A DNA stretch of 64,000 nucleotides from an uncultured Candidatus Saccharibacteria bacterium (GTDB taxonomy: Bacteria > Patescibacteriota > Saccharimonadia > Saccharimonadales > Saccharimonadaceae), in NCBI GenBank assembly GCA_948851665.1, contig CAQOWG010000003.1, forward strand, positions 12,021 to 76,020. Reading direction: 5' to 3'. The first letter of the stretch is position 1; the number at the start of each line of letters is the position of its first letter. Under the pieces are notes generated by a model, which had not been told where the DNA came from, searched no databases, and was given only the letters and a program-made list of their open reading frames with translations. This document shows positions 14,384 through 63,188 of this stretch, one piece after another. A program made the translations under genes and the position numbers.

Positions 14384-14608
14384 CGCAGCGCAAAGCAAAG
14401 CCGCCGCCACGCAAATTATTATCCTGGGGGTGAACATAGCCGGTCCACGTATCCAGGCGGCGCCCGTTGATAGCTGATCCAGCCGTGCCAGACCACCAAA
14501 GGCCATTCGTCGTACGAGCGATGAGGTAGCCGTAGGAACGGTGGTAGAAGCCAGTACGCAGGAACTGGAGAGGCCATTCATTAATACGGTTGTAGTTGGG
14601 GGTGCTGG
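14384..14608 (-). repeat. Lectin-like C-terminal cassette, copy A
   Basis: Head CCAGCACCCCCAACTACAACCGTATTAATGAATGGCCTCTCCAGTTCCTGCGTACTGG, tail GGCTTTGCTTTGCGCTGCG. The open frame reads PNYNRINEWPLQFLRTGFYHRSYGYLIARTTNGLWWSGTAGSAINGRRLDTWTGYVHPQDNNLRGGGFALRCV. An in-frame TAA lies 6 codons upstream and there is no start codon. Confidence 0.9.
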
Positions 14609-14736
14609 AAAAGTCCGGTTAAACGCCGACATTAATAAAACGCCCAACTTCTCCCCTATTCCCCCTTGTATTTTTTCTTATAATGCGCTATAATTACCCT
14701 CAGATGTTAAATATTATCTAATAATAAGGAATTTTC

Positions 14737-15090
14737 ATGCCGATTATCAAATCCGCAAAAAAAGCCGCTCGCCAAGCCGTCAAACGCACTGAGCACAATC
14801 AAGAAATCAAAAAGAGCATCAAAACCGCCGTCAAGGCTTTCAAAGCCGATCCTACCCCTGCTAACCTTTCCAAAGCTCAGTCCGAATATGACAAAGCCGT
14901 CAAAAAAGGCCTTTTAAAGGCTAATACCGTCAGCCGCCGCAAAGCCGCTTTGGCTAAGTTCGCCAAGGCTACCGCCGACAAACCAGCTGCCGCAAAAGCC
15001 AGCAAACCTGCCACCAAGGCTACCAAAACCACCAAAACTGCTACCAAAAAACCAGCCGCCAAGAAAACTACCGCCAAAAAATCCGCCTAA
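14737..15090 (+). CDS. rpsT: 30S ribosomal protein S20 with a Lys/Ala-rich C-terminal extension
   Basis: MPIIKSAKKAARQAVKRTEHNQEIKKSIKTAVKAF..., followed by a ~35-aa tail (AAKASKPATKATKTTKTATKKPAAKKTTAKKSA). TTGTAT...TATAAT promoter. Confidence 0.9.
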   Translation: MPIIKSAKKAARQAVKRTEHNQEIKKSIKTAVKAFKADPTPANLSKAQSEYDKAVKKGLLKANTVSRRKAALAKFAKATADKPAAAKASKPATKATKTTKTATKKPAAKKTTAKKSA

Positions 15091-15319
15091 CCCCGCCAAA
15101 GCATCAGCAAAAGAGTTTTGGACACAAATACTTGTTTAACAAGTAGCAACAGCCTCTTAACGTCATAATAAGACTTAGGCTCGGGTAAATTGTATACTGA
15201 TAAGCACACCTAGCTTTCTAATGGCATAATGAGATTTAGACCAGATTTACGTTTGTCAAATATACAACACATTTACGTGTTGTATATTTTATCAATAGGC
15301 AAGTGCTGCTATTAGAAAG

Positions 15320-15955
15320 CTAGGTGCGTTTATCGGCAATGTGACTTATATGTGCCAAAAGCCCTTTTACCAACGTCCACGGTTCCACCCCTGTCGATTT
15401 CATCTGTCGGTCTACTTCTGCCATCCGTTTCAGAATTGCCCGCTCTCGCTCCCCGCCACGCGAAAGCTCATATTTCTTCACCATCTGTGACACTAGCAAC
15501 CCAAAAAACATATATGGATCCTGCGTCGCCTCAATCTTTGCCACCTCTTTCAGGGCTTTCCCCCCATCCCGCAAGGCCAAATCCAAAATCCCAAACGCCA
15601 CCCTCGGATCCACTTCTGTCACATTCTTGAACTCTTTGAAGTCCACGCCCTTTTCCGCCAAACGTTTATATCCAGTCGACCTCTTATCAACCTTCACTTC
15701 CCAAATCACCACTTCATGCGCACTGTCAGCATAATCACCGATTTTTTCCCAAATTTCCGCCCGCTCCGTCAAGTTCTTCAGTAAAATCCGCCGCTTTCCG
15801 TCTTCAAAAGCCCCAAACAACGTCGTCCCTTGAAAAATGCTCGGCAGGTCCATCAAGTTCAGAGTCTCCCCCTCATACACCTCGTAATCCGTTCCTAGCA
15901 CTCGGCGCATTTCTTGCTCCGCCGCCGCCCGATTCTCTCCGTAAATCACCTTCAT
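15320..15955 (-). CDS. holA: DNA polymerase III delta subunit-like protein (short)
   Basis: The start is trimmed to MKVIYGEN (15955), which forms an ATGA overlap with the mutM stop. The overall pattern is HolA-like, but similarity is judged by eye only. Confidence 0.5.
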   Translation of the reverse strand: MKVIYGENRAAAEQEMRRVLGTDYEVYEGETLNLMDLPSIFQGTTLFGAFEDGKRRILLKNLTERAEIWEKIGDYADSAHEVVIWEVKVDKRSTGYKRLAEKGVDFKEFKNVTEVDPRVAFGILDLALRDGGKALKEVAKIEATQDPYMFFGLLVSQMVKKYELSRGGERERAILKRMAEVDRQMKSTGVEPWTLVKGLLAHISHIADKRT

Positions 15956-16893
15956 TCGCACACTTCCGGCATCAATTTCTCTACATAGCCCACCTGTGCC
16001 CGTCGGGAGGAAATCGAACTTGTCTCCTCCCAATCCTCCGGCGCTGGCTGGCACTTCGGGCAATAATGCGTCCCTCGCCCCGTCACTCGTGTTTTCAAAA
16101 TCGTCTCACCACAACGATTACAAGCCTTCCCCTCTCTGCGAAACACTTCCGCAAAGTTCTCCAAGTAATTCCCAGTCGTGCCATCTGGCTTAATATAGGT
16201 CGCCATCGTCGACCCACCAGAGTCAATCGAACGCTCCATCGTCTCTCGCGCCCCCAAAAGCAACCTTGATACTTGCTTTTCGCTCAAATTCCCTGCTTTC
16301 TCCGCTGGATGCACACCCGCATAAAAAAGCGATTCATCTGCATAAATATTTCCCAGCCCCGCAATAATTTTTTGGTCTAAAAGTACCGCCTTAATCGGTG
16401 CCTTTGCATGCCTCTGACATTTTTCATATAGCTCATGAGCATCCATCTCCCACGGCTCTGGCGCCAGCGCTGCAATAAAGGAATCCTCTTCTACCGCCTC
16501 TGTTCTGAGTATCTTCACAAAACCAAACTTTCGCTGGTCATTAAAGAACAATTTCCCCTCATCGAACACAAAAATTACTCGAGTCTGCCCATTCGGCAAA
16601 TCCGCTATAAAATTATTACTCGGATGCCCACCTGCAAAAGTCTCCCCATCATCTGGTCGCCAGATTAACTGCCCCGTCATCCTTAGATGTACCATCAAAG
16701 TCCACCCGTTATCAAGGTCAATCAAAAGTGCCTTCCCTCGACGCCTCAAACCTTTAACCATGGCATCCTTCGCTACCCCTGGATTACCTTGACAACTTTT
16801 CTCAGTCAACACAATCAACTCGCGGATCCGCCGTCCCTCAATACACGGCACCAACCCCCGCTTAATCGTCTCAACCTCTGGTAACTCTGGCAT
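15952..16893 (-). CDS. mutM: Formamidopyrimidine-DNA glycosylase
   Basis: N-terminal MPELPEVETIKRGL, an H2TH region, and a C-terminal zinc finger CNRCG...HYCPKCQ. Confidence 0.9.
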   Translation of the reverse strand: MPELPEVETIKRGLVPCIEGRRIRELIVLTEKSCQGNPGVAKDAMVKGLRRRGKALLIDLDNGWTLMVHLRMTGQLIWRPDDGETFAGGHPSNNFIADLPNGQTRVIFVFDEGKLFFNDQRKFGFVKILRTEAVEEDSFIAALAPEPWEMDAHELYEKCQRHAKAPIKAVLLDQKIIAGLGNIYADESLFYAGVHPAEKAGNLSEKQVSRLLLGARETMERSIDSGGSTMATYIKPDGTTGNYLENFAEVFRREGKACNRCGETILKTRVTGRGTHYCPKCQPAPEDWEETSSISSRRAQVGYVEKLMPEVCE

Positions 16894-16932
16894 AATACCC
16901 CCATTATATCACTTTCCTGCTATAATTATCTC

Positions 16933-17757: not shown

Positions 17758-17758
17758 C

Positions 17759-20191: not shown

Positions 20192-20243
20192 CTTTTTATT
20201 ATATCATGTCATTCCTCTTCTAGCATAAGAGTAAGGCATATGC

Positions 20244-20507
20244 ACGCAGAGCAGAGCATAACCAAGGCCGCGAAAATTGTTATACTGAACATGGATAATA
20301 CCAGTCCACGTAGTTAGGTAGCGCCCATCGGTAGCTGAGCTAGCCGTATCCGACCACCAAAGGCCACCAGTCGTACGCCCGTTGAGGTAGCCATGGGAGC
20401 GATTGTAACCACCAGTACGCAGGAACTGGAGAGACCATTCATTAATACGATTATAGTTGGGGGTGCTGGCGTGGCCGCACGTCCCGGAGCACGAGGTCGA
20501 GAAGGAC
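20244..20507 (-). repeat. Lectin-like C-terminal cassette, copy B (long 5' extension)
   Basis: The frame reads ...STSCSGTCGHASTPNYNRINEWSLQFLRTGGYNRSHGYLNGRTTGGLWWSDTASSATDGRYLTTWTGIIHVQYNNFRGLGYALLCV. There is no ATG/GTG/TTG between the upstream in-frame TGA and the head. Confidence 0.9.
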
Positions 20508-20566
20508 CTTGCAAGGCACCTATTGAGTTTGCCATTTTCTCCCTTGAATGCTACACTTATACCAGT

Positions 20567-24253: not shown

Positions 24254-24330
24254 GTCTATTAGACCGCAAAGTTGCTCATCGCACCCCTGTTACACACAAC
24301 CCCAACTAGTAACGCCGTTACAAGTTGCCC

Positions 24331-24593
24331 CGCAGCGCAAAGCAAAGCCGCTACCACGGAAATGGTTATGCTGGACGAGGACATTACCGGCCCACGTACT
24401 CAGGTTGTGCCCACTGGTAGCTGACCCAGCCGTGCTAGACCACCAGAAGCCATTCGTCGTACGTGCGTAGAGGTAGCCGTAGGAACGGTGGTAGTCGCCA
24501 GTACGCAGGAACTGGAGAGGCCATTCATTAAGACGGTTGTAGTTGGGGGTGCTGGCGTGGCCGCACGGCCCGGAGCACGAGGTCGAGAAAGAC
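24331..24593 (-). repeat. Lectin-like C-terminal cassette, copy C (long 5' extension)
   Basis: The frame reads SFSTSCSGPCGHASTPNYNRLNEWPLQFLRTGDYHRSYGYLYARTTNGFWWSSTAGSATSGHNLSTWAGNVLVQHNHFRGSGFALRC. It starts 28 nt after the dnaG stop on the same strand. In-frame TAGs lie just upstream. Confidence 0.9.
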
Positions 24594-29641: not shown

Positions 29642-29865
29642 GCGCACCCCCAACTACAATCGTATTAATGAATGGCCTCTCCAGTTCCTGCGTACTGGCT
29701 ACTACCACCGTTCCGAAGGTTACCTCGGCGGACGTATGGCGGGTGGCTACTGGTGGTCTGGCACGGCTGGTTCTGCTACCTCCGGGCGCAACCTGAGTAC
29801 ATGGACCGATCTCGTCAATGCCCAGGATAACCTTTTCCGTGGCTTCGGTTTTGCTCTGCGCTGGG
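29642..29865 (+). repeat. Lectin-like C-terminal cassette, copy D
   Basis: The frame reads (stop)RTPNYNRINEWPLQFLRTGYYHRSEGYLGGRMAGGYWWSGTAGSATSGRNLSTWTDLVNAQDNLFRGFGFALRW. A TAG immediately precedes the head. Confidence 0.9.
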
Positions 29866-29901
29866 TAAGCCATCATTACACAAATATAGAAGACTCTTAA
29901 T

Positions 29902-30159: not shown

Positions 30160-30204
30160 AGAATCATTATAACATTCGAGTAACGATTTATGCCACGAAC
30201 ATTA

Positions 30205-30430
30205 CGCAGCGCAGAGCAAAGCCGTCACCACGCCAATAGTTATTCTGGGCGTAGACGTAGCCTGTACGCGTATTCAGGTCGCGCCCGTCGGTAGCAGAAC
30301 CAGCCGTAGCGGACCACCAAAAGCCAGTCGTCGTACGAGAGGCGAGGTAGCCGTAGGAACGTTTGTAGTAGCCAGTACGCAGGAACTGGAGAGGCCATTC
30401 ATTAATACGGTTGTAGTTGGGGGTGCTGGC
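30205..30430 (-). repeat. Lectin-like C-terminal cassette, copy E
   Basis: The frame reads ASTPNYNRINEWPLQFLRTGYYKRSYGYLASRTTTGFWWSATAGSATDGRDLNTRTGYVYAQNNYWRGDGFALRCV. Two in-frame TAGs lie 5-6 codons upstream. It sits ~55 nt 3' of argS on the same strand. Confidence 0.9.
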
Positions 30431-30487
30431 GCCTTTGACACCACGCTACTACGCAAAATAAACTAGCAAAAAACATACAGGTATCTC

Positions 30488-38206: not shown

Positions 38207-39415
38207 TTACGCCGAACCAATCTTACTCACTAACGAGTAAATCGGGAAAAGAATTGCCGCCACGATACCACCAGCCACAAGTGCTAGCACCACCATCAAA
38301 ATCGGTTCAATCAAAGTCGAAATTGCTGCTAAGCGTTCATCAAGCTCATCCTCATAAACCTTCGCCGCCCGACCCAACATTTCGTCAATCTTCCCTGACT
38401 GTTCACCGGTCGCCGCCATCTGCGGTACCAAAGGCAAAATATACGCTCGGCCTTTCAAAGCAACGGAGAGTGGCTTACCACTTCGTACCATCGTTGCCGC
38501 CTGATTAATTTGATCCTCGACTATCACATTATTCACCGCTTCTCCAGAAATCTGCATCGCTTCTAGCATCGGCACACCCGCCGACAACAGCATCTGCGCC
38601 GTTCGCGCAAACCGCGCATTGTATAATCTCAAGAATAACCCCTTAAAAATCGGTACGTGTAATTTAAACTTTGCCCACCACTTTCCGCCTATATCCGTCT
38701 TCTTGAACTGCACAAAGAACCAACCACAAATTGCCAATACTACTAAAATCAGCCACCAGTAGTTCACCAAAAAATTCGAAAAATTTACCATCATCTGCGT
38801 CAAGACTGGCAACGGTTCATTTAAATCTCGGTACAAATTTTCCACTTGTGGCACCACCTGCAGCATTAGGAATGTCACCACCAACACAATCACCAAAAGC
38901 ACAATTGCCGGATAGGTCATCGCGCTTCGAATTTTCGAAATCATACTAGCATCTTTTTCTTGTTGCTCTGCTAAGCGCTTTAAGGACACATCAAGCGTAC
39001 CAGATGTTTCACCTGCCGCAATCAAAGACAGATAGACCTTATTGAATACCTCTGGATGCTTCGCAAATGCATCATGCAACGTTTTACCAGATTCTACCTG
39101 TGCAGAAATATCTTCCACTAAATTACGCGTCGCCTTGTTCTCACTCTGCTCCGCAATCATGTGCAAACTCGCCGAAAGTGGCAAACCCGCCGCAATCAAC
39201 GTCGCAAACTGCCGCGTAAAAGCAATTCGCTCCTTTGATGTCACTTTTCGGTTAGCACGGCCAAACAACCCTTCACCTTCTTCGATTACTCGCTGAGGCA
39301 AATATCCTTGATCTACCAAAATCTTGCCCGCCGCCTGTTCCGTTTCCGCTTGCACGGTTCCGTTTACAATGCGACCAGTTTTACGGTCCTTTGCCTTATA
39401 ATTAAACCTGCGCAT
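38207..39415 (-). CDS. pilC: Type IV pilus platform protein (GspF/PilC family)
   Basis: 402 aa with duplicated T2SS-F domains and 3 TM segments. Confidence 0.9.
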   Translation of the reverse strand: MRRFNYKAKDRKTGRIVNGTVQAETEQAAGKILVDQGYLPQRVIEEGEGLFGRANRKVTSKERIAFTRQFATLIAAGLPLSASLHMIAEQSENKATRNLVEDISAQVESGKTLHDAFAKHPEVFNKVYLSLIAAGETSGTLDVSLKRLAEQQEKDASMISKIRSAMTYPAIVLLVIVLVVTFLMLQVVPQVENLYRDLNEPLPVLTQMMVNFSNFLVNYWWLILVVLAICGWFFVQFKKTDIGGKWWAKFKLHVPIFKGLFLRLYNARFARTAQMLLSAGVPMLEAMQISGEAVNNVIVEDQINQAATMVRSGKPLSVALKGRAYILPLVPQMAATGEQSGKIDEMLGRAAKVYEDELDERLAAISTLIEPILMVVLALVAGGIVAAILFPIYSLVSKIGSA

Positions 39416-40737
39416 TATCCTCTCGCCAATCTATCAAATTCCGTCGTATCAACCGCCACCCCACGTGCTACGTCGAAGTTAATTACGCCCGCATTGACTA
39501 ATCTCGCTAGCTCGCGGTCCATCGTCTGCATACCCTGACTCATACCCGTCTGAATCGTCATATCAAGCTGGTGGGTCTTCCCTTCCCGAATAATACTCCG
39601 TACCGCTGAATTCGTCACCAAAATTTCCGTCACTGCAATCCGTCCGCCATCAACCGCCGGCACCAAGCGCTGCGAACAAATCCCCACCAAGATATTTGCC
39701 AACTGTGCCCGAATCTGTGGTTGTTGATGCGCCGGAAAGACATCAATCATGCGATCAATCGACTGCGCCGCTGAATTTGTATGCAACGTTGCAAATACCA
39801 AATGGCCTGTCTCTGCCACCGTAATCGCCGCCTGAATTGTCTCCAAATCACGCATCTCACCAATCAGCACTACGTCTGGATCTTCGCGGAGAATTGAGCG
39901 AAGCGCCGCCGCAAAACTAAAGGTGTCATAATGTACCTCGCGCTGCGCTACTACACTACGCTTCGAACGATGCGTAAATTCAATCGGGTCTTCAATAGTA
40001 ATAATGTGCAAAGCCTTTTCGGTATTTATCTTGTCAATCAAAGCCGCCAAAGTCGTCGACTTACCCGAACCAGTTGGCCCAGTCACCAATACTAAACCAT
40101 TTGGTTTTTCTGCAAACGTCGCCACCACACCCGGCAATCCCAAATCTTCAATTGAACGAATCGTATTTGGAATCAAGCGGAACGCTGCCGCCATATTTCC
40201 TCTTTCATAAAATGCGTTCACACGAAAACGACCTAGGTCACCAAAGGCAAATGAATAGTCAAACTCTTTGTCTTTCTTCAAAATTACTTTTTGATTTGCA
40301 TCAAGCGTCGAAAAAACTAGCTGTTGTACCGTCATGTCATCCAAAATCGGATAAGTTGTCATCGGCCGAAGCACCCCGTCAATCCTCAAGACCGGCGGCA
40401 ATCCCGCCTGCAAATGCAAATCTGACGCACTGTGTTTTATACACTCTTCCAACAAAGTTTCAATTACTACATCGGTCGAAAGTGGAACTGACGCAGGCGC
40501 CATTTCCTTAGCTTTCTCCGCTGCAATCATCTCTTCCGGTAACTTAATTTCCTGTTTCGGCTCAGTTTCCTTTGCCTGCGTAGGTACCGCTACGGGCTGA
40601 GTGTTCACCGTTTCTTGCGCAACCTGTGCTGCCGTAACCGCCGCATTCGCCACAACGCCATTATTACTCGGCACCCTCGCCGCTGTGCCATTGTTCGTCA
40701 AGTTTTGGTTATCTGAATTCATATTCCCACTATCCAT
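39415..40737 (-). CDS. pilT: PilT-family twitching/retraction ATPase with a ~90-aa low-complexity N-terminal extension
   Basis: Walker A GPTGSGKSTT, Asp box, Walker B VVLIGEMRD, His box ATLHTN, and a PilT-type C-terminus (AHQQPQIRAQLA). Confidence 0.85.
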   Translation of the reverse strand: MDSGNMNSDNQNLTNNGTAARVPSNNGVVANAAVTAAQVAQETVNTQPVAVPTQAKETEPKQEIKLPEEMIAAEKAKEMAPASVPLSTDVVIETLLEECIKHSASDLHLQAGLPPVLRIDGVLRPMTTYPILDDMTVQQLVFSTLDANQKVILKKDKEFDYSFAFGDLGRFRVNAFYERGNMAAAFRLIPNTIRSIEDLGLPGVVATFAEKPNGLVLVTGPTGSGKSTTLAALIDKINTEKALHIITIEDPIEFTHRSKRSVVAQREVHYDTFSFAAALRSILREDPDVVLIGEMRDLETIQAAITVAETGHLVFATLHTNSAAQSIDRMIDVFPAHQQPQIRAQLANILVGICSQRLVPAVDGGRIAVTEILVTNSAVRSIIREGKTHQLDMTIQTGMSQGMQTMDRELARLVNAGVINFDVARGVAVDTTEFDRLARG

Positions 40738-40779
40738 ATTACCTATTATAGCATAAGTATTTAAAAAATATAAAACTTC

Positions 40780-42546
40780 CTACGCCAAATCGCTTGCAAC
40801 ACGATTTACTTCTTCGATTGTCGTGGTACCAGAAAGTGCTTTTAGCATACCATCTTGCCTCATTGTCACGGTTCCCTTTTCTCGTGCCATCCGCATTACT
40901 TCCGCTGCTGTCGAGTGTGTAATAATCAATTTCTGAATATCCTCATCTACTTCGATCGCCTCATATAAACCAGCTCGTCCAGAATATCCACCCGGTGAAC
41001 TCTGGTCATCAATCCCCTTCACAAGTGTATAAGATGCCTGACCTGACTGAGGCAGACCTGAATAACCCAAATCCTCTCCTACCTCTGCCACATCATCTGG
41101 TGTCTTCGGCAAAAGTGGCCCAACAATATCGTTAATTGCCTGCGTCTCCATATCACTACTTTGATAAGTCGTTCTCTTCTCCGCTACCCGCCGCACAAGA
41201 CGTTGTCCGATCACCGTGTTTAGCGTTGACGCCAGCAAAAACGGTTCAATCCCCATATCAAGAAGCCGTGGCAAAATACCCGCTGCCGAGTTTGTGTGCA
41301 ATGTTGAGAATACTAAATGACCTGTCAAACTCGCCTGCACCGCAAGATTTGCCGTCTCTGAATCACGAATCTCACCCACCATCACTACATCCGGATCCTG
41401 GCGCAGAATACTCCTTAACCCCGACGCAAAGGTTAACCCCGCATCAGTGTTTACCTGAATCTGATTCACCCCCTCCATCTTATACTCTACCGGATCTTCC
41501 AGCGTAACAATATTGATTTTCTCACTCTTAATCTGCTTAATCAACGCGTAAAGCGTCGTCGATTTACCAGAACCAGTTGGGCCCGAAGTCAAAATCATAC
41601 CGTTCGGCTGAGAAATCCCCTTGAGCACCGTTCTAAGCGCGCGCCCCGTCATACCCATACCTTCAATATCCATCGACGTGCCCGTCTTGTCCAGCAAACG
41701 TATCACCACCTGCTCCCCCCATACTACCGGCGAAATCGCAATACGTAGATCCACTTCTTTATCCCCCACCATCACTGCAAACTGACCATCCTGTGGAATC
41801 CGGTGTTCATCAATCTTCAAATTTGACAGAATCTTAATCCGCGACACTAGCGCCGGCTCAATGGCTTTCGGCAATTCCATCACCCTCCTAAGCACGCCAT
41901 CAATCCGACACCGAATTACTAAACTACTCTCTAACGGCTCAATATGCACATCCGAAGCCTTTGACCGCACCGCGTACTCCAATATCGAAGTTAGTGCCTT
42001 AGAAATCGGCGAATCCTGTGTGATCGTCTTAATATTGCTGCTCGCCCGGGCCTTCGCTATCTCCTTGTTCGTGACCTTGACCGCCTGCTCTACTCCAGTA
42101 AAATCTGCTCGATACTGCTTCAATACGGCCTGTATCCCCTCATTCGAAGCCATCACTGCCCGTACTGCTTTACCTGTAAAAGTTGATAAGTAATCAATCG
42201 ACTGGATGTTCCCCGTATCCAACATTGCTACCACCAGCTGGCCATTGTTCTCGCCCAACGGTACCGCCATCGACCGCTCTGCCACCTCCATCGGTAGAAG
42301 AGTTAAAGTCGCCTGATCCATTTCTACATTTTTCAAATCAACATATGGCACACCCATCACCACTGCCGTAGCGTGCGCCAACATTCCATCTGACACCACT
42401 CTCTGCGCCACCAACATCTGCAAAAGCGGTTGCCGAGTTTGTGCTGCCTCCGCCTGTGTCTTCTCTACATTGGCCTGATCAACCAATCCCTCACTCACCA
42501 AGAGTTCAATTACTCGTGCCAAGGACTCCTTCGTCAGTAGCGCCAT
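40780..42546 (-). CDS. pilB: Type IV pilus assembly ATPase (GspE/PilB family)
   Basis: 588 aa with an N-terminal GSPII_E_N-like domain, Walker A GPTGSGKSTT, VVMVGEIRD and STLHTN. Confidence 0.9.
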   Translation of the reverse strand: MALLTKESLARVIELLVSEGLVDQANVEKTQAEAAQTRQPLLQMLVAQRVVSDGMLAHATAVVMGVPYVDLKNVEMDQATLTLLPMEVAERSMAVPLGENNGQLVVAMLDTGNIQSIDYLSTFTGKAVRAVMASNEGIQAVLKQYRADFTGVEQAVKVTNKEIAKARASSNIKTITQDSPISKALTSILEYAVRSKASDVHIEPLESSLVIRCRIDGVLRRVMELPKAIEPALVSRIKILSNLKIDEHRIPQDGQFAVMVGDKEVDLRIAISPVVWGEQVVIRLLDKTGTSMDIEGMGMTGRALRTVLKGISQPNGMILTSGPTGSGKSTTLYALIKQIKSEKINIVTLEDPVEYKMEGVNQIQVNTDAGLTFASGLRSILRQDPDVVMVGEIRDSETANLAVQASLTGHLVFSTLHTNSAAGILPRLLDMGIEPFLLASTLNTVIGQRLVRRVAEKRTTYQSSDMETQAINDIVGPLLPKTPDDVAEVGEDLGYSGLPQSGQASYTLVKGIDDQSSPGGYSGRAGLYEAIEVDEDIQKLIITHSTAAEVMRMAREKGTVTMRQDGMLKALSGTTTIEEVNRVASDLA

Positions 42547-42893
42547 TACTCCCCTTCAGGGGTAGTTTCACCTTCCCCACCACCTTCACCCCCTTCGTCT
42601 TCTTCAGGGGCCTCAATCCTACCACACGCTTGCAGCTCCAATTCGTCCAAAATACCGTTCTTATCCAAATCCTCACAATCACCCACAAACACCTCAATCG
42701 TCGGGTTAATAGCAGTTGCATTGAAAACTTCAGGATCCGGATCCTTTAAGTCACTTGCAATCACGTGCTCCAATCCCGTAAAATGAACAATCGCTTCTTC
42801 TGGCTTCCCCATAATCGCTTGGCAAATAAAGAAAGCTGCCAAAGTCCCCACACTTGCCACTACTACAATACTAAAAATATCTGACTGCTTCAT
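42546..42893 (-). CDS. Small membrane-anchored protein with an acidic tail, in the pilus operon
   Basis: 115 aa with a single N-terminal TM helix. Its start abuts the upstream stop and its stop overlaps the pilB start. Confidence 0.5.
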   Translation of the reverse strand: MKQSDIFSIVVVASVGTLAAFFICQAIMGKPEEAIVHFTGLEHVIASDLKDPDPEVFNATAINPTIEVFVGDCEDLDKNGILDELELQACGRIEAPEEDEGGEGGGEGETTPEGE

Positions 42894-43778
42894 TTATTCC
42901 CGTCCTTTCGTTACTCGACCATTCTTCGCGCGTACCGTCACCGTCACTTCTGGGCTCAATAGATCTTCCAAGTAATACGCATTCGCCTCCACTCGCGCGC
43001 TCACACCTGCATTAGTCCACTCAAAGCTTGCTACCGTAATATCAAAATCCCGAATTGATTTTTCAATATTGTTCAATACTCGGATGATCATCGGCCCATC
43101 TGCCTCCATCCGGAAAAGCACCGGGATCACCCCAATCCCTTCAATTGATGATTTTACAATATCATCCCGTGGCGAAATACTCTCTGGCTCCAATTCAGAA
43201 ATAATAAATATATCATTTAAACTCGCCATCAAAGCTTCTGTATTCTTATGTGCTGGTAAAGCATCCGCCAATATCCTTAACGCCGAACAGGATTTTGTTC
43301 CAAGCAACGCTTGCTCTCTTTCCGTATCGGTAGTCGCATTGTTATATTCTTCTGCAAAGTTCCTCAACTCCCCTTCCTCATCAAAACACACCCCGTCCGC
43401 TTCATGTTGACGAGCTACCGACTCCAACGCTTCATTTTGCGCCATCACCTCATAAATGTTGTATCTAAGTGAATTCTGCACCTGGCTTAAAGAAACCTCG
43501 TTTGGGTTACAAGCTGCCATTTCTGCGTCACTTAATCTCCCATTCCTATCTGAATCGACGCAAACCCCTACATTGCGCAAAGTTTGATCATATTCAGTAA
43601 TTGCATCGCTCTTCGCTGTAATTACAATCGTGTTAAACTTAATGTATTTAATCAAGAAGTTCGCTATCACGATACAAGCCCCAAGTACCAGTGAAGCCGC
43701 TAGCACCTCCACCAAAGTCATCCGCTGTGCTTTGGAAATCTTCGCCCGCTTCGTTTCTGTCGGTTTATTACTGTCCAT
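42894..43778 (-). CDS. Pilus-operon membrane protein (PilO-like position)
   Basis: The start is trimmed to MDSNKPTE (43778). It has one TM helix (MTLVEVLAASLVLGACIVIANFLI) and lies between the pilN-like gene and pilB. The assignment rests on context only. Confidence 0.45.
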   Translation of the reverse strand: MDSNKPTETKRAKISKAQRMTLVEVLAASLVLGACIVIANFLIKYIKFNTIVITAKSDAITEYDQTLRNVGVCVDSDRNGRLSDAEMAACNPNEVSLSQVQNSLRYNIYEVMAQNEALESVARQHEADGVCFDEEGELRNFAEEYNNATTDTEREQALLGTKSCSALRILADALPAHKNTEALMASLNDIFIISELEPESISPRDDIVKSSIEGIGVIPVLFRMEADGPMIIRVLNNIEKSIRDFDITVASFEWTNAGVSARVEANAYYLEDLLSPEVTVTVRAKNGRVTKGRE

Positions 43779-45138
43779 TTTTATTTCCTCCGCTATTCTC
43801 GCTATTACCCAAACACTCCGTATCGTCCGCTTCGCAAGCTCGAGCTTCCTGAGTGAACATACTACCAATCTGCATAAAGGAATCTGTCACATTCTGACCC
43901 ATCGGTCCAATCGCAATCATATGCTTATTCTTAAAAGAGAAATATTCCTCTGCAAACTGTACTGTTGCCGTAAATCTAAGTACCAAGTTGTCGCTCTCAT
44001 CACGCCCATTGGATGAGCCAGAGATAGTCAAGCCTTTCGGTGCCAAAGCACAATCATTTGTTGAGCTCCAACGTACTCCACCCCCACCGAGCACTGAACC
44101 ACTATACACATAACATTCGCTATTGAAATGTTCGACTCCGTCAATTTTCCCATCCGTAGACATATACCCTTCCTGATACCAAGCATCAAACTGTGGCGTC
44201 CGCCAAATCTTCACTCGTACTGGCTTCTCCACCATCACTACTTCTGGCTCAGTTGTACTTGGCTCCAACGGATTCATCGGATTCACATCTGGCTGTTTTA
44301 ATTCTTCAACTTCTTCCGTTTCCACCTCAGCAGTGCTGCTAAAATGAAACTCCGCATCATTCTCACTCTGATTTAAGGATCGTTCAGTCGCCTCACAACC
44401 TGGGATTTTCAAGTCCCACCATGCATAGTAACTATCGCCATCACGAAATGCATTGCCCGATTCATCTGCCGCTACAATACATTGAGTCGGAATTTCCTTT
44501 CCATCAACATCAACATAGCGTCCATAATCGAACTTTGTCAAATCAACACTCTTTTTGAACGCCTCTAGCACTCGGTAGTCAATTAACGGGGCAACCTTAG
44601 CATCTGCCTGACCTTCCATGTTAATTGTGTCTGTATCCAATGTCACTTTTAGCTCTGACATTTTCACCTCATCGCTACCCTGCGGCAACATCACCCCAAG
44701 CGCGCCAAACACTCGCGAAACCACCGCACGTTTCTGCAAAATCTCACTATAACGACCCAGCTGATCCTGAATTGTAATTAAATCATCAAACTCATCATAC
44801 CCGTTCAACTTATCAGACATCAACTTCAATTTCGAATCTTGATTATGCATCGCAATATCTTGTCCGGATTTAATTCCAAACAAAATCACTACCGCACCTA
44901 CTGCCACACTAGAAACCACGATACAAATAAACAACACCAAATTGCGCATCTTTTGCGCCTTAATCATCTGCATCTTCACTTCTGGCACAAGATTAATCTC
45001 ATAACCACGATCCCTACTCGGGCCTTCCTCGCCCGGTCGCTTCGGCAACGGTCGACGCACCAACTTTGCATAAGCAGTTCGCACCTTAAAGCTAATCTCT
45101 TGCAGCTTTTCCTTAAACTTTTCGAAAAACTCTTCCAT
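43768..45138 (-). CDS. PilN-like fimbrial assembly protein with a large extracytoplasmic domain
   Basis: A YEINLVPEV motif (PilN INLLP signature), then a TM helix and a ~330-aa extra domain. It sits immediately downstream of pilM with an ATGA-type overlap. Confidence 0.55.
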   Translation of the reverse strand: MEEFFEKFKEKLQEISFKVRTAYAKLVRRPLPKRPGEEGPSRDRGYEINLVPEVKMQMIKAQKMRNLVLFICIVVSSVAVGAVVILFGIKSGQDIAMHNQDSKLKLMSDKLNGYDEFDDLITIQDQLGRYSEILQKRAVVSRVFGALGVMLPQGSDEVKMSELKVTLDTDTINMEGQADAKVAPLIDYRVLEAFKKSVDLTKFDYGRYVDVDGKEIPTQCIVAADESGNAFRDGDSYYAWWDLKIPGCEATERSLNQSENDAEFHFSSTAEVETEEVEELKQPDVNPMNPLEPSTTEPEVVMVEKPVRVKIWRTPQFDAWYQEGYMSTDGKIDGVEHFNSECYVYSGSVLGGGGVRWSSTNDCALAPKGLTISGSSNGRDESDNLVLRFTATVQFAEEYFSFKNKHMIAIGPMGQNVTDSFMQIGSMFTQEARACEADDTECLGNSENSGGNKNGQ

Positions 45139-46184
45139 TAGTCATTGCTCCTCTCCGCTAATCCAATTGCCACAGCAAACTCACTTGCCACAGGCCTCAA
45201 AACTTGCTGTTGCTCTGGCGTCACCCGCACCATTTGCCATGGATTCCCTTGCGTTGTCGGTACATTTGTCTTTGCCTCAATATATTCCGCAATAAACGGA
45301 ATCATCCCGGCAAAACCCGACAGAACGATTCCACCTACTGGCGCATTCATATATTCTGACTTGAAGAAACGCATCGACTTTCCTAATTCCGCCGCAAAAC
45401 TCTCCAATGTTGCGTCAAGCGCTTTAAACACCTGTCCCTCCACCTTATCTTGCGCCAAACCAAACTTTAAAATAAACTGCCGTGCCTGCTCTTCCTTCAC
45501 TGATAGTGACGTCGACACCGTCCGAATCAATTGCGAAAAACCACCCGGAACTGACCGCACTAATCTAGGCATCCCCCGGTACATCATCACGATATCCGTC
45601 GACCTCTCCCCCAAATCAATAATCATCCGTGCGTCCTGTGCCCCCACTGGCGTTAGTGCTCGCGCCATCGCAAGCGATTCTGGCTCTTGTGCAATCACGT
45701 TCAAACCAAAGGACTCGATCATTTCCATCCGATTCTCTGCATAGCTAATCGCCGACGAAGAAATCAAAATCTCCGCTTTTGTTGCATCATGCGGGCAAAC
45801 CCCAAGCGATACATAATCCACTGTCGCTTCATCAAGCGGCATCGGAATATATTTATCTAATTGGTATTTAATCGAGTTTATTAATTCTACTTCAGGCAAG
45901 TTCTCCACTCGCACAATTGACGTAAAAGTCTTTGCTGCTGGCATTCCTACTGCGATATTTTTTGTTGTGATACCAGCTTGCTTCATTGCCCCCAGAATCG
46001 TCTCACCTAATCTCCGCTGACCAGCCGCTGAACTATCTTCAAGCACTCTCCGATCGACTGGCACATAAGCAAACTTCTGTAACACCCAACCATGCTGACT
46101 ATTACCAGCCAACTGCACCAAACGAATTGCCGTTGTCCCAATATCTAATGCGAAGAAATCGCCCACACCGTGAATCAAACTCAT
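45138..46184 (-). CDS. pilM: Type IV pilus assembly protein PilM (actin-like ATPase)
   Basis: 348 aa. FALDIGTTAIRLVQL...IIDLGERSTDIVM... shows the PilM/FtsA-like fold. Confidence 0.85.
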   Translation of the reverse strand: MSLIHGVGDFFALDIGTTAIRLVQLAGNSQHGWVLQKFAYVPVDRRVLEDSSAAGQRRLGETILGAMKQAGITTKNIAVGMPAAKTFTSIVRVENLPEVELINSIKYQLDKYIPMPLDEATVDYVSLGVCPHDATKAEILISSSAISYAENRMEMIESFGLNVIAQEPESLAMARALTPVGAQDARMIIDLGERSTDIVMMYRGMPRLVRSVPGGFSQLIRTVSTSLSVKEEQARQFILKFGLAQDKVEGQVFKALDATLESFAAELGKSMRFFKSEYMNAPVGGIVLSGFAGMIPFIAEYIEAKTNVPTTQGNPWQMVRVTPEQQQVLRPVASEFAVAIGLAERSND

Positions 46185-48601: not shown

Positions 48602-48968
48602 ATTTCTCATTATATCATACCTTGGTGCAAAACCGCGCTATTCAACTTTTTGCCACAAACACAAAAAGTATGTTGCACTAGAATTGTTACAAGCAATACA
48701 ATTTAACGAAGTCGGATTTTTATCCACAAAAACCGATCTTCAGTCACGCAAAGTAATATTGGCGCCATGGGGTGCGATGCTTTGAGTAATTGAAGACTTC
48801 GAGTATTGTTTGTAACATCCTCGTGGTGCCATTTTTGTTATGGTAATATCTACGAACTCCAACACCTTCTTATACACGAACTAGGGGGTTTCCTACTTCA
48901 TATCTCTATCAATTCACATCGTGACTAAGCCGACCAAAATGTCTACCGTCTTCGCTCGGCGCACCCTC

Positions 48969-49194
48969 CGCAGCGCAGAGCAAAGCCGCTGCCACGGAAA
49001 TGGTTATGCTGGACGAGGACATTACCGGCCCACGTACTCAGGTTGTGCCCACTGGTAGCTGACCCAGCCGTGCTAGACCACCAGAAGCCATTCGTCGTAC
49101 GTGCGTAGAGGTAGCCGTAGGAACGGTGGTAGTCGCCAGTACGCAGGAACTGGAGAGGCCATTCATTAAGACGGTTGTAGTTGGGGGTGCTGGC
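48969..49194 (-). repeat. Lectin-like C-terminal cassette, copy F (near-identical to C)
   Basis: 224 of 226 nt are identical to 24331-24556. It begins ~10 nt after the pnp stop on the same strand. An in-frame TAG lies 3 codons before the head. Confidence 0.95.
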
Positions 49195-52482: not shown

Positions 52483-52540
52483 ATATCGCCCATTATATCA
52501 CAGATTACATCCCCAATCAACCCCTATTTTGCACATACCC

Positions 52541-52724
52541 CTTAACTTCCTGCGTACCGGGTTCTACTATTACTCCGACGGTAAGGTCTACGATCGCACG
52601 ACGAATGGCCGCTGGTGGTCCGCTACTCGTAGCTCTGCGACGAATGCTAACAACCTGAACACGGATACCACGGCTGTCTTCCCGCAGGGCAGCAGCAATC
52701 GCGGGCTCGGCTTTGCGGTGCCGC
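52541..52724 (+). repeat. Lectin-like C-terminal cassette, copy G (divergent, 5'-truncated)
   Basis: The frame reads LNFLRTGFYYYSDGKVYDRTTNGRWWSATRSSATNANNLNTDTTAVFPQGSSNRGLGFAV. Its tail abuts the tail of copy H. Confidence 0.8.
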
Positions 52725-52726
52725 TA

Positions 52727-53068
52727 CGCAGCGCAGAGCAAAGCCGTGACCACGGAAATAGTTAGACTGGGCGTTGACACCGCCAGTATGCGTACCCAGG
52801 TAGCGCCCGTAGGTAGCGGATCCAGCCGTATTAGACCACCAGTAGCCAACCGTCGTACGCTCGCGGAGGTAGCCGTAGGAACGGTGGTAGTAGCCAGTAC
52901 GCAGGAACTGGAGAGGCCAAGAGTTAAACAGTCCGGAAGGCATGAAACTTTGTTTCATGCCCAGCAAGCAATTTCATTGCTTGCTCTCATCTCCAATGAG
53001 ATGAGTTCCGAACTGAACATTAATACGGTTGTAGTTGGGGGTGCTGGCGTGGCCGCACGGCCCGGAGC
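52727..53068 (-). repeat. Lectin-like C-terminal cassette, copy H (carries a 98-bp insertion)
   Basis: The frame reads ...SGPCGHASTPNYNRIN[insert]WPLQFLRTGYYHRSYGYLRERTTVGYWWSNTAGSATYGRYLGTHTGGVNAQSNYFRGHGFALRCV. It starts ~27 nt 3' of truB on the same strand. The insert supplies TTG/ATG codons, giving the 106-aa track ORF 52647-52967. Confidence 0.9.
52920..53018 (-). other. 98-bp perfectly nested four-helix palindromic element inserted in cassette H
   Basis: Plus strand: outer arm GTTAAACAGTCCGGAA, then three adjacent hairpins, then outer arm TTCCGAACTGAAC. The hairpins are GGCATGAAAC-TTT-GTTTCATGCC, AGCAAGCAAT-TTC-ATTGCTTGCT and CTCATCTC-CAAT-GAGATGAG. There are almost no unpaired junction nucleotides. 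The other cassettes read GAGAGGCCATTCATTAATACGG uninterrupted at this point. Confidence 0.85.
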
Positions 53069-57679: not shown

Positions 57680-57680
57680 A

Positions 57681-57713
57681 AGAAAGATCCTGAATTCTCG
57701 GGGTCTTTCTTAG
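57681..57713 (+). terminator. Terminator after tRNA-Gly
   Basis: AGAAAGATCC-TGAATTCTC-GGGGTCTTTCT, followed by TAGTTTGTT. Confidence 0.5.
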
Positions 57714-57725
57714 TTTGTTAGGGTC

Positions 57726-58760: not shown

Positions 58761-58768
58761 GCTAACCT

Positions 58769-60720: not shown

Positions 60721-60744
60721 ATTCACTACCATTATAACACGAAG

Positions 60745-62385
60745 CTATTTCTTCACTACCTTCTTCGTTACGTCAAATCTTTCCATATATTTCCCTAGCA
60801 TCAATCTTGTCTGTGAATAAAACGCCGCCGCGCTCTGATACACAATTGCCACTACCGGCATCAAAATCCACTGTATCACCATTGAAAACTTGTTCTTTTT
60901 CTTCACATGATCCGGTCGCTGAGGCAACATTCCTAGCGATACCAGCACTGTAATAATCAGACCTATCGACGCAAAAGTCTGAATCCACCCCACCACATTC
61001 GGTAAGTTAAACGCCACTGCTCCCCTCGCACTTGCATTCATCAACTTCGGCACCCACCCACCAAATGCCACAATTGGTGCCATATAAGCCAATGTTATAT
61101 GGCCATCCAAAAGTCTCATGAACTTCGGGAACAGTTGTAAAAATGGCACTTTGTGCTCTTTGCTAAACAAATACGTCCCCACATACGCCACATCACTCGC
61201 CCCATAATCCCATCGTCGAAGCTGCACAAATTGCGCCTTTAGAGTTTCCCATGTCGACCCCGCAATCACCGCATCTTGATAGATAGGCACCCGAATTGGT
61301 ACTACCTCGTATTTTCCCTCAAAATAGAATAACGATCGCCAATATTGGTGCCCATCCTCTACAATCGTCCGTTTACTCCAAAAATCCATCGCTTCAAGCG
61401 CTGCGAGCGGCTGCGAGTGCGAAGCAAAGTTTTTCAAAAGATGTGGTCTCATCGCCGAAATGATATTAAAAAACGAGTTTGACACCGCAATCACTCGCAT
61501 TGGTGCCGCCGCCTCCCAAATATTATTCGTAAAAATCGAAATCGGCTGGTAGGCATAGTGCTGTCGATCTGGCCGCACACAAAATTCATAAGTTACGTAA
61601 TCCAAATATTTTTTACTCATCCGGTTATCGCTATCCAATGAAGTCACAATCACATTTTCTTTCCGAAGACGTTTTTTCTCGACATACTGAGCCAAATGTT
61701 CCCCTGCATAAGTCAGATTTGGCCCCTTTCCAACAATCTCTCCCTTCAAGTTGTCCGGATGCTTCACCAAAACAAAATCCTTGAACACCCCCTTAAATTT
61801 CTCCTTGAGCTCCCGTGCATTCTGCTCCATCTTTTCTCCACCCCGCTCTTCATAACCCAGTACAAAAATAATCCGCTCATTCGGAAAAGTTGTATCACGC
61901 ACCGCCTCGACCGACGGCACTAACGTCTCCAAACCCTCATCATATGCCACCATGATTACCGCGTTATAAATCTCATGTGGTTTTGGCTCACTATTCCCCT
62001 CCACCGCCGAGAGTAACCGCAAATTTTGTAAATGCTCCTGATAATCATAGCTCGTTCGTCGTTCTTCCCGCCGAACCTCATATGCCCGGTGTGGATCCTC
62101 CAAATCATTCAAGCGTTCCGCCCAATCCACCTTTCCCGCTTCCGCCATCACCTTACGCCCTTGCAATATTCGAAACGCCGTCCCTACTGCTTTTACTAAC
62201 GTAATCGCCACCAGCAACAACAGATACACCGACCCCGCAATCGGACTTATCCATGACAAAATAAACAGCAGTGCCACCGCCACGTAGCTCATTAACCCAG
62301 GTAAAATCTCAAAAAAACGATAAAGCGGCTTTCGCTTCCCTAAAGGAATCTCTGGAAAATTTAGACGCGTTGCCACAACTACCAC
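60745..62385 (-). CDS. Processive family 2 glycosyltransferase (cellulose-synthase-like), multi-TM
   Basis: The D,D,D,QxxRW signature is present (VAYDEGLE, TSLDSDN, QLRRWDYGA), flanked by TM helices. The start is uncertain. I placed it at the GTG at 62385, overlapping the upstream stop; the track start at 62559 overlaps the upstream gene by 180 nt. Confidence 0.7.
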   Translation of the reverse strand: MVVVATRLNFPEIPLGKRKPLYRFFEILPGLMSYVAVALLFILSWISPIAGSVYLLLLVAITLVKAVGTAFRILQGRKVMAEAGKVDWAERLNDLEDPHRAYEVRREERRTSYDYQEHLQNLRLLSAVEGNSEPKPHEIYNAVIMVAYDEGLETLVPSVEAVRDTTFPNERIIFVLGYEERGGEKMEQNARELKEKFKGVFKDFVLVKHPDNLKGEIVGKGPNLTYAGEHLAQYVEKKRLRKENVIVTSLDSDNRMSKKYLDYVTYEFCVRPDRQHYAYQPISIFTNNIWEAAAPMRVIAVSNSFFNIISAMRPHLLKNFASHSQPLAALEAMDFWSKRTIVEDGHQYWRSLFYFEGKYEVVPIRVPIYQDAVIAGSTWETLKAQFVQLRRWDYGASDVAYVGTYLFSKEHKVPFLQLFPKFMRLLDGHITLAYMAPIVAFGGWVPKLMNASARGAVAFNLPNVVGWIQTFASIGLIITVLVSLGMLPQRPDHVKKKNKFSMVIQWILMPVVAIVYQSAAAFYSQTRLMLGKYMERFDVTKKVVKK

Positions 62386-62876
62386 TCCCCCAATAACCGC
62401 ATCATCACTAGTACCGTCACTAAAATCAGCAGCATCGTTGTAATCACTACTATCATCGCCGCATCGCGACCATATTTCCGGTATACCCGCACCGCCAACA
62501 AATTGTGTAGAACACCAAAGACCAATGCCAAAATCGGAAATGCCAACATATTTAACCAACTATCACGCCTATATCCCCCAGTAATACCAGCAATCTCCCC
62601 GTAAACATCCCCATACCCCACAATTACCACTGTATTATGCGGTCTCAAGGTTGACAAGGAGAACACAAAAAGCAACGCCGCCATCACCACCAGCACTATC
62701 ATCAAAGTCATCAAGCCCTTCTGACGATGACAAATCTCTCGCCAGGTCGCTTTCAAACCTTCCGAGTTCTTCTCTCTCTTCTGGGCCTTCGTCGGACGCG
62801 CCGTCTTCTCCGAACGTTCCGTCGCCGGACGCACCACCCCATTCATGGTCCTCTTTTGATTTCTCGCAGTTGTCAT
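62379..62876 (-). CDS. Hypothetical membrane protein with a basic N-terminus
   Basis: 165 aa with 3 TM helices, directly upstream of the GT2 gene. Confidence 0.55.
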   Translation of the reverse strand: MTTARNQKRTMNGVVRPATERSEKTARPTKAQKREKNSEGLKATWREICHRQKGLMTLMIVLVVMAALLFVFSLSTLRPHNTVVIVGYGDVYGEIAGITGGYRRDSWLNMLAFPILALVFGVLHNLLAVRVYRKYGRDAAMIVVITTMLLILVTVLVMMRLLGEW

Positions 62877-62971
62877 TTGTTATATATTATACCGAAACCG
62901 CACACATTATTCAAGTTTGAGCACTTTACTTCACTTTCAGCCTTGTATCACATATCCATTCTTGTACTCTC

Positions 62972-63188
62972 CGCAGCGCAGAGCAATACCGTAGCCACGG
63001 AAACTGTTATACTGAGCGTGGACGTAACCAGTACTCGTGTCCAGGTGGCGCCCGTTAGTAGCAGAGCCAGCAGTGCTAGACCACCAGTCGCCACTCGTCG
63101 TACGTGCGTGGAGGTAGCCGTAGGAACGGTAGTAGTAGCCAGTACGCAGGAACTGGAGAGGCCATTCATTAATACGGTTGTAATTGGG
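62972..63188 (-). repeat. Lectin-like C-terminal cassette, copy I (5'-truncated head)
   Basis: The frame reads PNYNRINEWPLQFLRTGYYYRSYGYLHARTTSGDWWSSTAGSATNGRHLDTSTGYVHAQYNSFRGYGIALRC. The upstream in-frame stop has no intervening start codon. Confidence 0.9.

Follow-up and report, generated by a model that had tools for sequence, protein, structure and literature searches.

Gene-less copies of a diversity-generating retroelement variable region are dispersed at high density in a Saccharibacteria genome

In order to characterise a family of short repeats in the genome of an uncultured Candidatus Saccharibacteria (TM7) bacterium, we analysed a 64,000-nt stretch of its DNA (positions 12,021 to 76,020 of contig CAQOWG010000003.1, assembly GCA_948851665.1; hereafter the window). 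Nine cassettes, named A to I, lie in the spacers between the genes of the window, and the variation between them was written by a diversity-generating retroelement (DGR), a class of element that uses a reverse transcriptase (RT) and a template repeat (TR) to rewrite a variable region (VR) of a target gene. We regard it as very probable that the cassettes are orphan copies of such a variable region, devoid of a gene of their own and for the most part in decay.

A repeat search of the window returned seven direct copies of about 227 nt, and a translated search (tblastn) added two more on the opposite strand, giving the total of nine (Table 1). Eight of these (A–F, H and I) are of a main type, while G represents a second, divergent type with approximately 50% amino acid identity to it. 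F was found to be mismatched with C at 2 of 227 nt, the flanks of the two copies being different. Read in the conserved frame, the cassettes follow the pattern STPNYNRINEWPLQFLRTG.Y.RSYGYL..RTT.G.WWS.TAGSAT.GR.L.T.TG.V.AQ.N.FRG.GFALRC. Five more copies are present in a further 20 kb of the same contig, so that 14 copies occur in 84 kb, or about one per 6 kb, and 12 of the 14 lie on the G-rich strand.

The first-pass annotation of the window had treated the cassettes as variable regions of genes, which proved untenable once their surroundings were examined. All nine are intergenic fragments with an in-frame stop 0–37 codons upstream and without any ATG, GTG or TTG before the conserved part, and none of them forms part of the 3′ end of a target open reading frame (ORF) that is expressed. 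The N-terminal 500 residues of the parent protein have no homologue anywhere in the window. Read-through from upstream genes into the cassettes was considered and rejected, since the frames differ and stops intervene; C and F are each out of frame with the gene upstream and separated from it by stops. A 173-aa ORF over G was likewise discarded as a gene, being the antisense of rpsO and matching no Pfam or NCBIfam model. The cassette peptide alone gave no Pfam or NCBIfam match either, including to Fib_succ_major; it covers only the last 40% or so of that domain. When the cassettes were used in a profile search of 5.8 billion proteins, only short ORFs of 65–151 aa were recovered, many of them 84-aa calls of the form MTNPNGASTPNYNR...GFALRCVAR. 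The full-length parent was absent from these matches and was found only via genome loci.

A scan of species-representative genomes located 35 loci, all of them from Saccharibacteria, and allowed us to identify the kind of element from which the cassettes derive. CAZCIN01, a genome collinear with the window at about 82% nucleotide identity, encodes on a 1.3-kb contig an RVT_1 reverse transcriptase (E=5e-14) with the motifs GNLTSQ...YVDD (consensus GxxxSQ...YVDD). Convergent with this gene on the same contig is an Asn-rich template of the G type, FLRTGNYNYSDGKMYNRTTNGNWWSATRSSATNANNLNTNTSNVNPQNSNNRGNGFALRCVAR followed by a stop, and an Asn-rich copy of the main type, FLRTGNYNRSYGNLANRTTNGNWWSSTAGSATNGHNLNTNTGNVNAQNNNWRGNGFALRCVAR followed by a stop, is found elsewhere in the genome. 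Compared with their template, the G-type copies of CAZCIN01 are changed at 207 of 656 adenines, 9 of 740 cytosines, 3 of 588 guanines and 14 of 506 thymines (26 of 1834 sites other than adenine). One of these copies ends a 583-codon ORF (572 aa from the first ATG) for a secreted protein and differs from the template at 15 of 50 adenines and at none of 142 other sites. This full-length homologue (locus L025) contains a Fib_succ_major domain (PF09603) over residues 416–570, scoring 37.7 bits where the cut-off is 33.9, and the VR occupies its C-terminus.

The canonical order of a DGR was found on single contigs of two further relatives, at loci L043 and L045, where a target gene of 563–571 aa with the VR at its 3′ end is followed by a gene of 335–344 aa, the RT gene and an inverted template. 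Taken over the relatives, the VR closes genes of 563–583 aa. The VR of L043 differs from its template at 17 of 46 adenines and 1 of 146 other sites, that of L045 at 18 of 51 adenines and 2 of 141 other sites, and template–VR identity runs through the stop codon in L043 and 18 nt beyond it in L045. The leader upstream of the template is unrelated to the target sequence and is conserved between templates. The gene of 335–344 aa (L043 5497-6531, L045 2005-3012, L044 195-1202) overlaps the start of the RT gene and occupies the place of the small Avd in other DGRs; its product is charged, probably helical, and without a match in Pfam or NCBIfam. The RT scored far below the cut-offs of the group II intron, retron and DRT models. 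Its best match among solved structures was 8ub7_A, a 328-aa reverse transcriptase (E=3e-23) that we take to be the Bordetella phage DGR enzyme, and the target domain had no sequence match among solved structures.

Templates from these related public assemblies, rather than from the window, were then compared with the window cassettes. No RT, template or full-length target is present in the 64-kb window or in 20 kb more of the same contig, in agreement with the first-pass annotation, which had reported the window to be free of RT, Avd and AAY-rich template. Aligned with the L045 template over 173 nt, G is mismatched at 17 of the 50 adenines, while all 123 other sites agree. Given that adenines make up 29% of those sites, the probability that all 17 differences would fall on adenines by chance is about 7e-10. 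G has 8 non-adenine mismatches to the CAZCIN01 template, and L045 and CAZCIN01 are 82% identical, the same distance as that between the window and CAZCIN01; on these grounds L045 probably belongs to the species of the window or to one very near it. The eight main-type cassettes, compared with the template of L043 from a mouse-gut relative, differ at 125 of 308 adenines (41%), 40 of 371 cytosines (11%), 20 of 315 guanines (6%) and 23 of 266 thymines (9%). Specifically, A differs at 17 of 44 adenines, 6 of 53 cytosines, 1 of 45 guanines and 2 of 38 thymines, while 44 adenines and 136 other sites could be compared in E (21 and 8 mismatches, respectively), H (20 and 10) and I (16 and 10); B has 24 non-adenine mismatches. 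The proposal that a DGR had mutagenised the adenines of AAY codons, made at first from the window alone together with the suggestion that cassette–template mismatches should fall at template adenines, is thus borne out by the RT and Asn-rich templates of the relatives and by the adenine-specific mismatches of the cassettes, most clearly of G. A search with a template-like peptide returned template-like ORFs in other genomes only. Three candidates for the RT or template of the window species (P0122, P0126 and P0128) were set aside, as they came from other sample sets and were not tied to the assemblies that hold the window strain. We infer that the DGR lies in this same genome, outside the window.

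Coordinates of the cassettes, their extensions and the insert in H are collected in Table 1. Drawn slightly wider, the repeat units span 14383..14609 (A), 30203..30433 (D), 29643..29867 (E), 48966..49194 (F) and 62969..63194 (I).

Table 1. Cassettes and associated features in the window (coordinates of the 64,000-nt stretch)
Feature	Position	Strand	Description
Cassette A	14385-14606	-	Main type; divergent spacer between a 157-aa ORF and rpsT; in-frame stop 5 codons upstream, no start codon
Cassette B	20246-20467	-	Most diverged main-type copy; between polA and a kinase-like gene
Cassette B with 36-nt 5′ extension common to C and H	20244..20503	-	
Cassette C	24332-24553	-	Main type; directly after the dnaG stop codon
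Cassette C with 5′ extension and hairpin-like 3′ flank	24290..24589	-	3′ flank GGGGCAACTTGTAACGGCGTTACTAGTTGGGG
Cassette E	29643-29864	+	Main type; opposite strand, tail-to-tail with D, 340 nt apart
Cassette D	30206-30427	-	Main type; directly downstream of argS
Cassette F	48970-49191	-	Near-identical to C; begins 14 nt past the pnp stop codon
Cassette G	~52535-52719	+	Second type; intergenic beside rpsO, abuts H tail-to-tail
Cassette H	52722-53068	-	Main type with 5′ extension; interrupted by a 96-nt structured insert
96-nt insert in H	52923..53020	-	Closing stem and three hairpins, in-frame stop, flanked by TTAA
Cassette I	62973-63194	-	Main type; between a 136-aa ORF and a glycosyltransferase gene

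The first-pass annotation had rested its case on hypervariable codon columns that always end in a pyrimidine (NNY) and encode no Lys, Glu or Trp. We aligned the seven distinct main-type copies by codon and took as hypervariable any column with at least four residues among the seven, which gave 16 columns, 13 of them entirely NNY. Every column that had been named (20, 29, 34, 40, 47, 50 and 52) is indeed all NNY, as are columns 36, 57, 59, 62, 64 and 68, but columns 22, 30 and 54 contain purine-ending codons: AAA (Lys) in D at column 22, GCT/GGG/GCA/TCT/GGA/GAG/GCA at column 30 (G-N-N in six of seven copies) and TGG in four copies at column 54, the other three having CGT, CAT and AGT, that is NNT. 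In the same way the absence of Lys, Glu and Trp held at the named columns but not at other variable ones, where all three do occur; the Glu codon GAA of E is at column 25, which has three residues and is outside the 16. Of the hypervariable columns 13 of 16 are all NNY, and of the remainder 35 of 56 (Fisher p=0.23); counted by codon, the shares are 91% and 73%. NNY alone is therefore weak and non-distinctive evidence here. What is informative, and exceeds chance, is the set of codon positions at which variation occurs: the adenines of AAY codons in the relatives' templates have a pairwise diversity of 0.555, compared with 0.061, 0.073 and 0.228 at non-adenine sites in first, second and third positions, respectively. 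The exceptions to NNY fit the same adenine mechanism, the L043 template having GAA at column 30 (expected to become GNN) and GGA and TCA at columns 43 and 44 (expected to become GGN and TCN). At least three template alleles are recorded among the cassettes at columns 29/30, 54 and 65. D descends from a CAZCIN01-like allele, as its allele-specific columns (GCC at 29, TGG at 65 and NNT at 54) match the CAZCIN01 template in L012; most other cassettes are L043-like, and H and I derive from a third combination.

Alignment with the complete DGR loci showed that each cassette corresponds to only the last 60–75 codons of the target gene. Homology to the template begins at CAGTTCCTGCG (FLRTG). Main-type cassettes extend about 45 nt, or up to 14 codons, further in the 5′ direction (STPNYNRINEWPLQ) and G about 10 nt; this is the target gene's own sequence and is absent from the template, so that the cassettes must have been copied from the gene or from other orphans and not from template cDNA alone. 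B, C and H have in common a further 36 nt of 5′ flank. At their 3′ ends the cassettes terminate at CTGCGCTGCG, 11–20 nt before the end of the VR, and then run into a different flank each. G is cut 19–20 nt short of the VR end, and H keeps 6 nt more of it (GTAGCG) than the other copies. None of the window copies consequently retains the intact VR 3′ end in which the cis elements for homing, with template–VR identity up to the VR end and target-specific sequence or a hairpin after it, would be expected. The GC-rich 3′ edge of the cassettes had been suggested to be a boundary resembling an initiation of mutagenic homing (IMH) site; it is instead a truncation inside the VR, as identity between VR and template continues for another 11–20 nt, through the stop codon. 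The hairpin-like 3′ flank of C recurs in L001, L048 and P0092, once behind a template-like copy with the template leader. G and H meet tail-to-tail at 52713-52733, their GC-rich truncated ends being 0–2 nt apart (…GCGGTGC abutting CGCTACGCAGCGCAG…). Likewise, D and E and several CAZCIN01 pairs are arranged tail-to-tail or in tandem, as if new copies had landed at existing 3′ ends.

The 96-nt insert of H separates NYNRIN from WPLQF and is predicted to fold into three hairpins of 8–11 bp (-57 kcal/mol), with 3 compensatory pairs across copies from three species. Further copies occur at L008 1205-1320, L018 10022-10137 and L047 ~6001, and the insert was found only inside H-type cassettes. A search of the insert and the G/H region with Rfam gave no match. 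The insert may be either a structured RNA or a very small mobile element.

Comparison with CAZCIN01 revealed that the cassettes are gained and lost between genomes. The sites of B (L013), D/E (L013), G/H (L011) and I (L007) are empty in CAZCIN01, that of C is occupied in both genomes (L013), and the site of F holds instead a full-length 574-aa paralogue plus two cassettes (L011). Filled and empty sites differ by an imprecise replacement of about 50 nt, and at the junctions of B, G/H and I we found neither the target-site duplications nor the terminal inverted repeats by which a miniature inverted-repeat transposable element (MITE) or an insertion sequence is recognised. C and F match over exactly the cassette and no further. 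Three to four copies in CAZCIN01 are identical, while others agree in their variable pattern over one half only, 5′ or 3′, and the orphans often stand in tandem or tail-to-tail with one another or behind full-length paralogues.

Several composite sequences were encountered among the related assemblies. L048 (ena:ERZ13657768, 529 nt) is a template-like, Asn-rich copy with the template leader but with the 3′ flank of a C-type orphan. P0073, P0081 and P0114 are chimeric family members, some of them Asn-rich in one half and diversified in the other. Such chimeras suggest that template, VR and orphans have recombined, or that homing was incomplete. Contig L037 (ena:ERZ17761700 ERR3199584_326) joins the pnp side of F (48968) to the NUDIX side of C (24556), skipping 24.6 kb that include ftsK, the pilus genes and dnaG; this join reflects either an assembler that jumped across the 227-nt repeat or a genuine variant produced by recombination or deletion. 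L001 (CANBEI010000009.1) was rejected as an orthologous copy of B, because it is 98.5% identical to the window up to B (1-830) and then 65–79% identical to another region of the window. It is probably a chimeric contig or a bin broken at the cassette, calls for caution with metagenome-assembled genomes of this clade, and was not used as evidence of activity.

Based on these comparisons, we propose the following scheme. The RT copies RNA of the template repeat and misreads its adenines, and the resulting cDNA overwrites the VR, turning AAY into NNY, GAA into GNN and GGA into GGN while other bases are copied faithfully; each of the window cassettes bears this imprint. The template, inverted and untranslated, presents AAY (Asn) codons at positions that are predicted to face the ligand, the target being a secreted protein of about 570 aa with a C-terminal Fib_succ_major domain. 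Orphans would arise repeatedly, by copying or gene conversion acting on the cassette as a unit, a mode of generation that we infer, and would then decay almost neutrally, such that the copies may record template alleles of different kinds and ages.

The changes private to single cassettes accord with such decay. At non-adenine sites, 15 are synonymous and 16 non-synonymous, with no stops where about two would be expected. Conserved scaffold residues have been lost, namely a Cys in E (to Trp) and in copy J, and an Arg in B (to Leu). There is no frameshift or stop in any window copy other than the insert of H. Four assemblies of the strain (99.97–100% identical) do not differ in the cassettes, and 33 sample blocks have one cassette ORF in identical form, the strains concerned being nearly clonal. 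Most orphans are probably no longer mutagenised.

A number of observations weigh against an interpretation of the cassettes as decaying orphans, or limit it. The filled sites, being without target-site duplication or terminal repeat, indicate no mechanism of copying. When strains of the mouse-gut lineage that are 98.8% identical were compared, one orphan at an orthologous site showed mismatches at 16 of 44 template adenines and 11 of 136 other sites, and 33 of the 44 mismatches within 1 kb lay inside it. Its divergence exceeds that of its flanks roughly tenfold and falls mainly on template adenines, which argues that at least some orphans are not inert; the true VR of that lineage differs between strains at 20 of 44 adenines and 3 of 136 other sites. 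The orphan's changes at non-adenine sites, together with an indel, are explained equally well by homing and by the substitution of another copy. Adenines outside the AAY codons (in ACG, TAC and CAG) are almost never changed in any copy, which means that each variant passed selection at the protein level at some stage, presumably while in an expressed gene; non-functional orphans alone do not explain this. With 64 kb plus 20 kb of the genome covered, the DGR could also have been lost. The perfect template for G comes from another public assembly, apparently of the same species as judged by sequence distance only. Lastly, no main-type template of the window species was found among the assemblies searched, so that the 6–11% of non-adenine mismatch in the main-type cassettes mixes species divergence with decay.

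It is conceivable, though we hold it to be unlikely, that the orphans are live DGR substrates whose VR body is still overwritten by mutagenised cDNA, serving as unexpressed decoys or by-products of a DGR with several targets. The lack of any non-adenine difference between G and its template, the nine distinct G-type orphans of CAZCIN01 with 0–4 non-adenine mismatches each, the adenine-biased difference of the mouse-gut orphan and the open frames of the window copies, bar the insert of H, are what live substrates would be expected to show. However, the orphans lack the last 11–20 nt of the VR and whatever lies beyond, and it is at the end of the VR and beyond that the homing signal is located in the Bordetella phage paradigm. 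Main-type copies also differ at non-adenine third positions (0.23) and carry private changes that damage the scaffold; C equals F, and CAZCIN01 has its sets of identical copies. The cassettes are moreover unchanged in the four assemblies and the one ORF in the 33 sample blocks, and the difference seen in the mouse-gut orphan includes 8% non-adenine change and an indel, as copy replacement would give. An ordinary family of diverged repeats or paralogue remnants, in which no DGR took part and NNY is mere codon usage, can draw on the frequency of NNY throughout the cassettes (73% of codons at less variable columns, 35 of 56 columns, p=0.23), but we consider this hardly credible in view of the adenine-specific template mismatches, of first and second positions that outvary the third at AAY columns, the reverse of ordinary divergence, and of the RT and Asn-rich templates that adjoin homologous VRs in relatives.

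The arrangement of the copies has also to be set against two further explanations. If the orphans formed a silent archive of pre-diversified VRs that are recombined into the target gene or into each other, in the manner of pilS/pilE or MgPar, their dispersed, promoterless, 5′-truncated and in-frame open state would be accounted for, and the 45–70 nt or so of target-gene sequence without template counterpart at one end and the conserved 19-nt block at the other would serve as flanks for recombination. The half-shared patterns of CAZCIN01, the chimeras (template leader with orphan 3′ flank; half template and half diversified), the identity of C and F over the cassette only, the clustering of orphans beside full-length paralogues in CAZCIN01 and the conserved scaffold adenines, as would be expected if every version had once been put to the test as a protein, all agree with an archive. 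Nevertheless we think it doubtful: neither a transfer from orphan to expressed gene nor, in the window plus 20 kb, the expression locus of this genome was observed, about half of the singleton changes are non-synonymous and some destroy the conserved Cys and Arg, so that coding selection is weak at most, and the mosaics could also stem from partial retrohoming or general repeat recombination. Still more improbable, in our judgement, is that a small non-autonomous mobile element, either MITE-like or produced by the DGR RT from transcripts containing the cassette, spreads independently with the cassette as its body or cargo and prefers sites at existing VR ends. Presence or absence at four sites, a near-constant 3′ end with 5′ ends varying within about 40 nt, copies with the same 96-nt insert at several loci of several species, the frequent tail-to-tail and tandem pairs (G/H, D/E; L006, L010, L011, L018) and the co-orientation of 12 of 14 copies with the leading strand would suit such an element. 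It would be required, on the other hand, to move without terminal inverted repeats or target-site duplications and through imprecise junctions that replace about 50 nt; its 5′ ends cluster without the spread in length of processivity-limited retro-copies, insert-bearing copies keep their 5′ end although 96 nt longer, and the window contains no transposase or second RT. A combination of these ideas, in which retrohoming writes variants and copies of tested variants are stored as orphans that act as further homing substrates or as conversion donors to the surface-protein gene, is one that we advance only tentatively and would not expect to be correct.

The interpretation as orphan VR copies can be placed beside known systems. 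As in the cellular DGRs that have several VRs and targets of the C-type-lectin fold, namely those of the Treponema denticola TvpA family, Legionella LdtA and the Patescibacteria (candidate phyla radiation, CPR) clade, differences between template and VR are adenine-specific, the untranslated template is rich in AAY, the RT has the SQ motif, and the VR forms the very C-terminus of a secreted protein that binds ligands. In some instances the template is found on the opposite strand, and a single RT can have more than one template or VR. Unlike in those systems, most VR-like copies here lie outside genes, as start-less half-domain pieces in spacers that lack the last 11–20 nt of the VR, and the accessory gene, at 335–344 aa and without a Pfam or NCBIfam match, is not a small Avd. 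The DGR surveys consulted describe VRs inside ORFs and a few VRs per element and make no mention of orphan arrays, and no account of orphan VR cassettes in Saccharibacteria turned up in the literature that we searched. Silent-cassette variation (Neisseria pilS/pilE, Mycoplasma genitalium MgPar, Borrelia vls) resembles the present case in its dispersed, promoterless, 5′-truncated copies with conserved blocks, and in the mosaics seen here in a relative. It differs in that the copies described here were written by an RT at template adenines rather than accumulated by mutation, show decay, and have not been seen to pass from donor to expression site. Lastly, 5′-truncated retro-copies or processed pseudogenes likewise lack a promoter, have one 3′ end in common but variable 5′ ends, are polymorphic for insertion, decay almost neutrally and occur in a lineage with an RT, but here the 5′ ends cluster tightly and there are neither poly-A tails nor target-site duplications. 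The gene sequence that is absent from the known RT template would furthermore require a different RNA, or copying at the DNA level.

In the usual view of a DGR, one template rewrites one or a few VRs inside genes, whereas here dozens of gene-less VR copies in the reduced genome of an episymbiont bear the imprint of the element. If they are by-products, they would point to an unrecognised side reaction of DGRs, the duplication of a VR to new sites, and would preserve, like fossils, template alleles and binding-site variants of the past. If the cells make use of them, the protein that most plausibly attaches the cell to its bacterial host would be diversified by hypermutation and cassette recombination together. 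Were the tentative scheme of written and stored variants true, the orphans would amount to a heritable library of binding sites for switching between bacterial hosts, and the DGR machinery or a recombination coupled to it would be able to duplicate a VR to new sites. There are also practical consequences: metagenome assemblies break off in the repeats at the DGR locus, which typically leaves RT contigs of about 2.6 kb, the repeats also give rise to chimeric joins, and the orphans are prone to being miscalled as hypothetical proteins of 84–130 aa or missed by DGR finders that require VRs to lie in ORFs.

The placement of the window in Candidatus Saccharibacteria was supported by related loci together with exact protein matches, and a near-identical strain (99.97–100% identity) is present in several public metagenome assemblies. 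The window has a G+C content of 47% and a GC skew of about -0.3 throughout (about -0.25 to -0.46 per 2-kb window). Since the skew does not switch anywhere within 1-64000, there is no replication origin or terminus there. The genes are mainly on the minus strand, and most are on the G-rich strand. Those neighbouring the cassettes are of the ordinary housekeeping kind and comprise rpsT, polA, dnaG, a NUDIX hydrolase, RNase T, argS, the genes of a type IV pilus cluster, ftsK, pnp, rpsO, truB and glycosyltransferases. The pilus cluster (PilM, two T2SSE ATPases and T2SSF) is at 38207-46184 on the minus strand, between cassettes D and F, and has no evident link to them. About 17 kb past the window end, the same contig carries a Cas9-like gene (L050 17770-20393) whose 1093-aa product matches HNH, RuvC_III and Cas9_RuvC.

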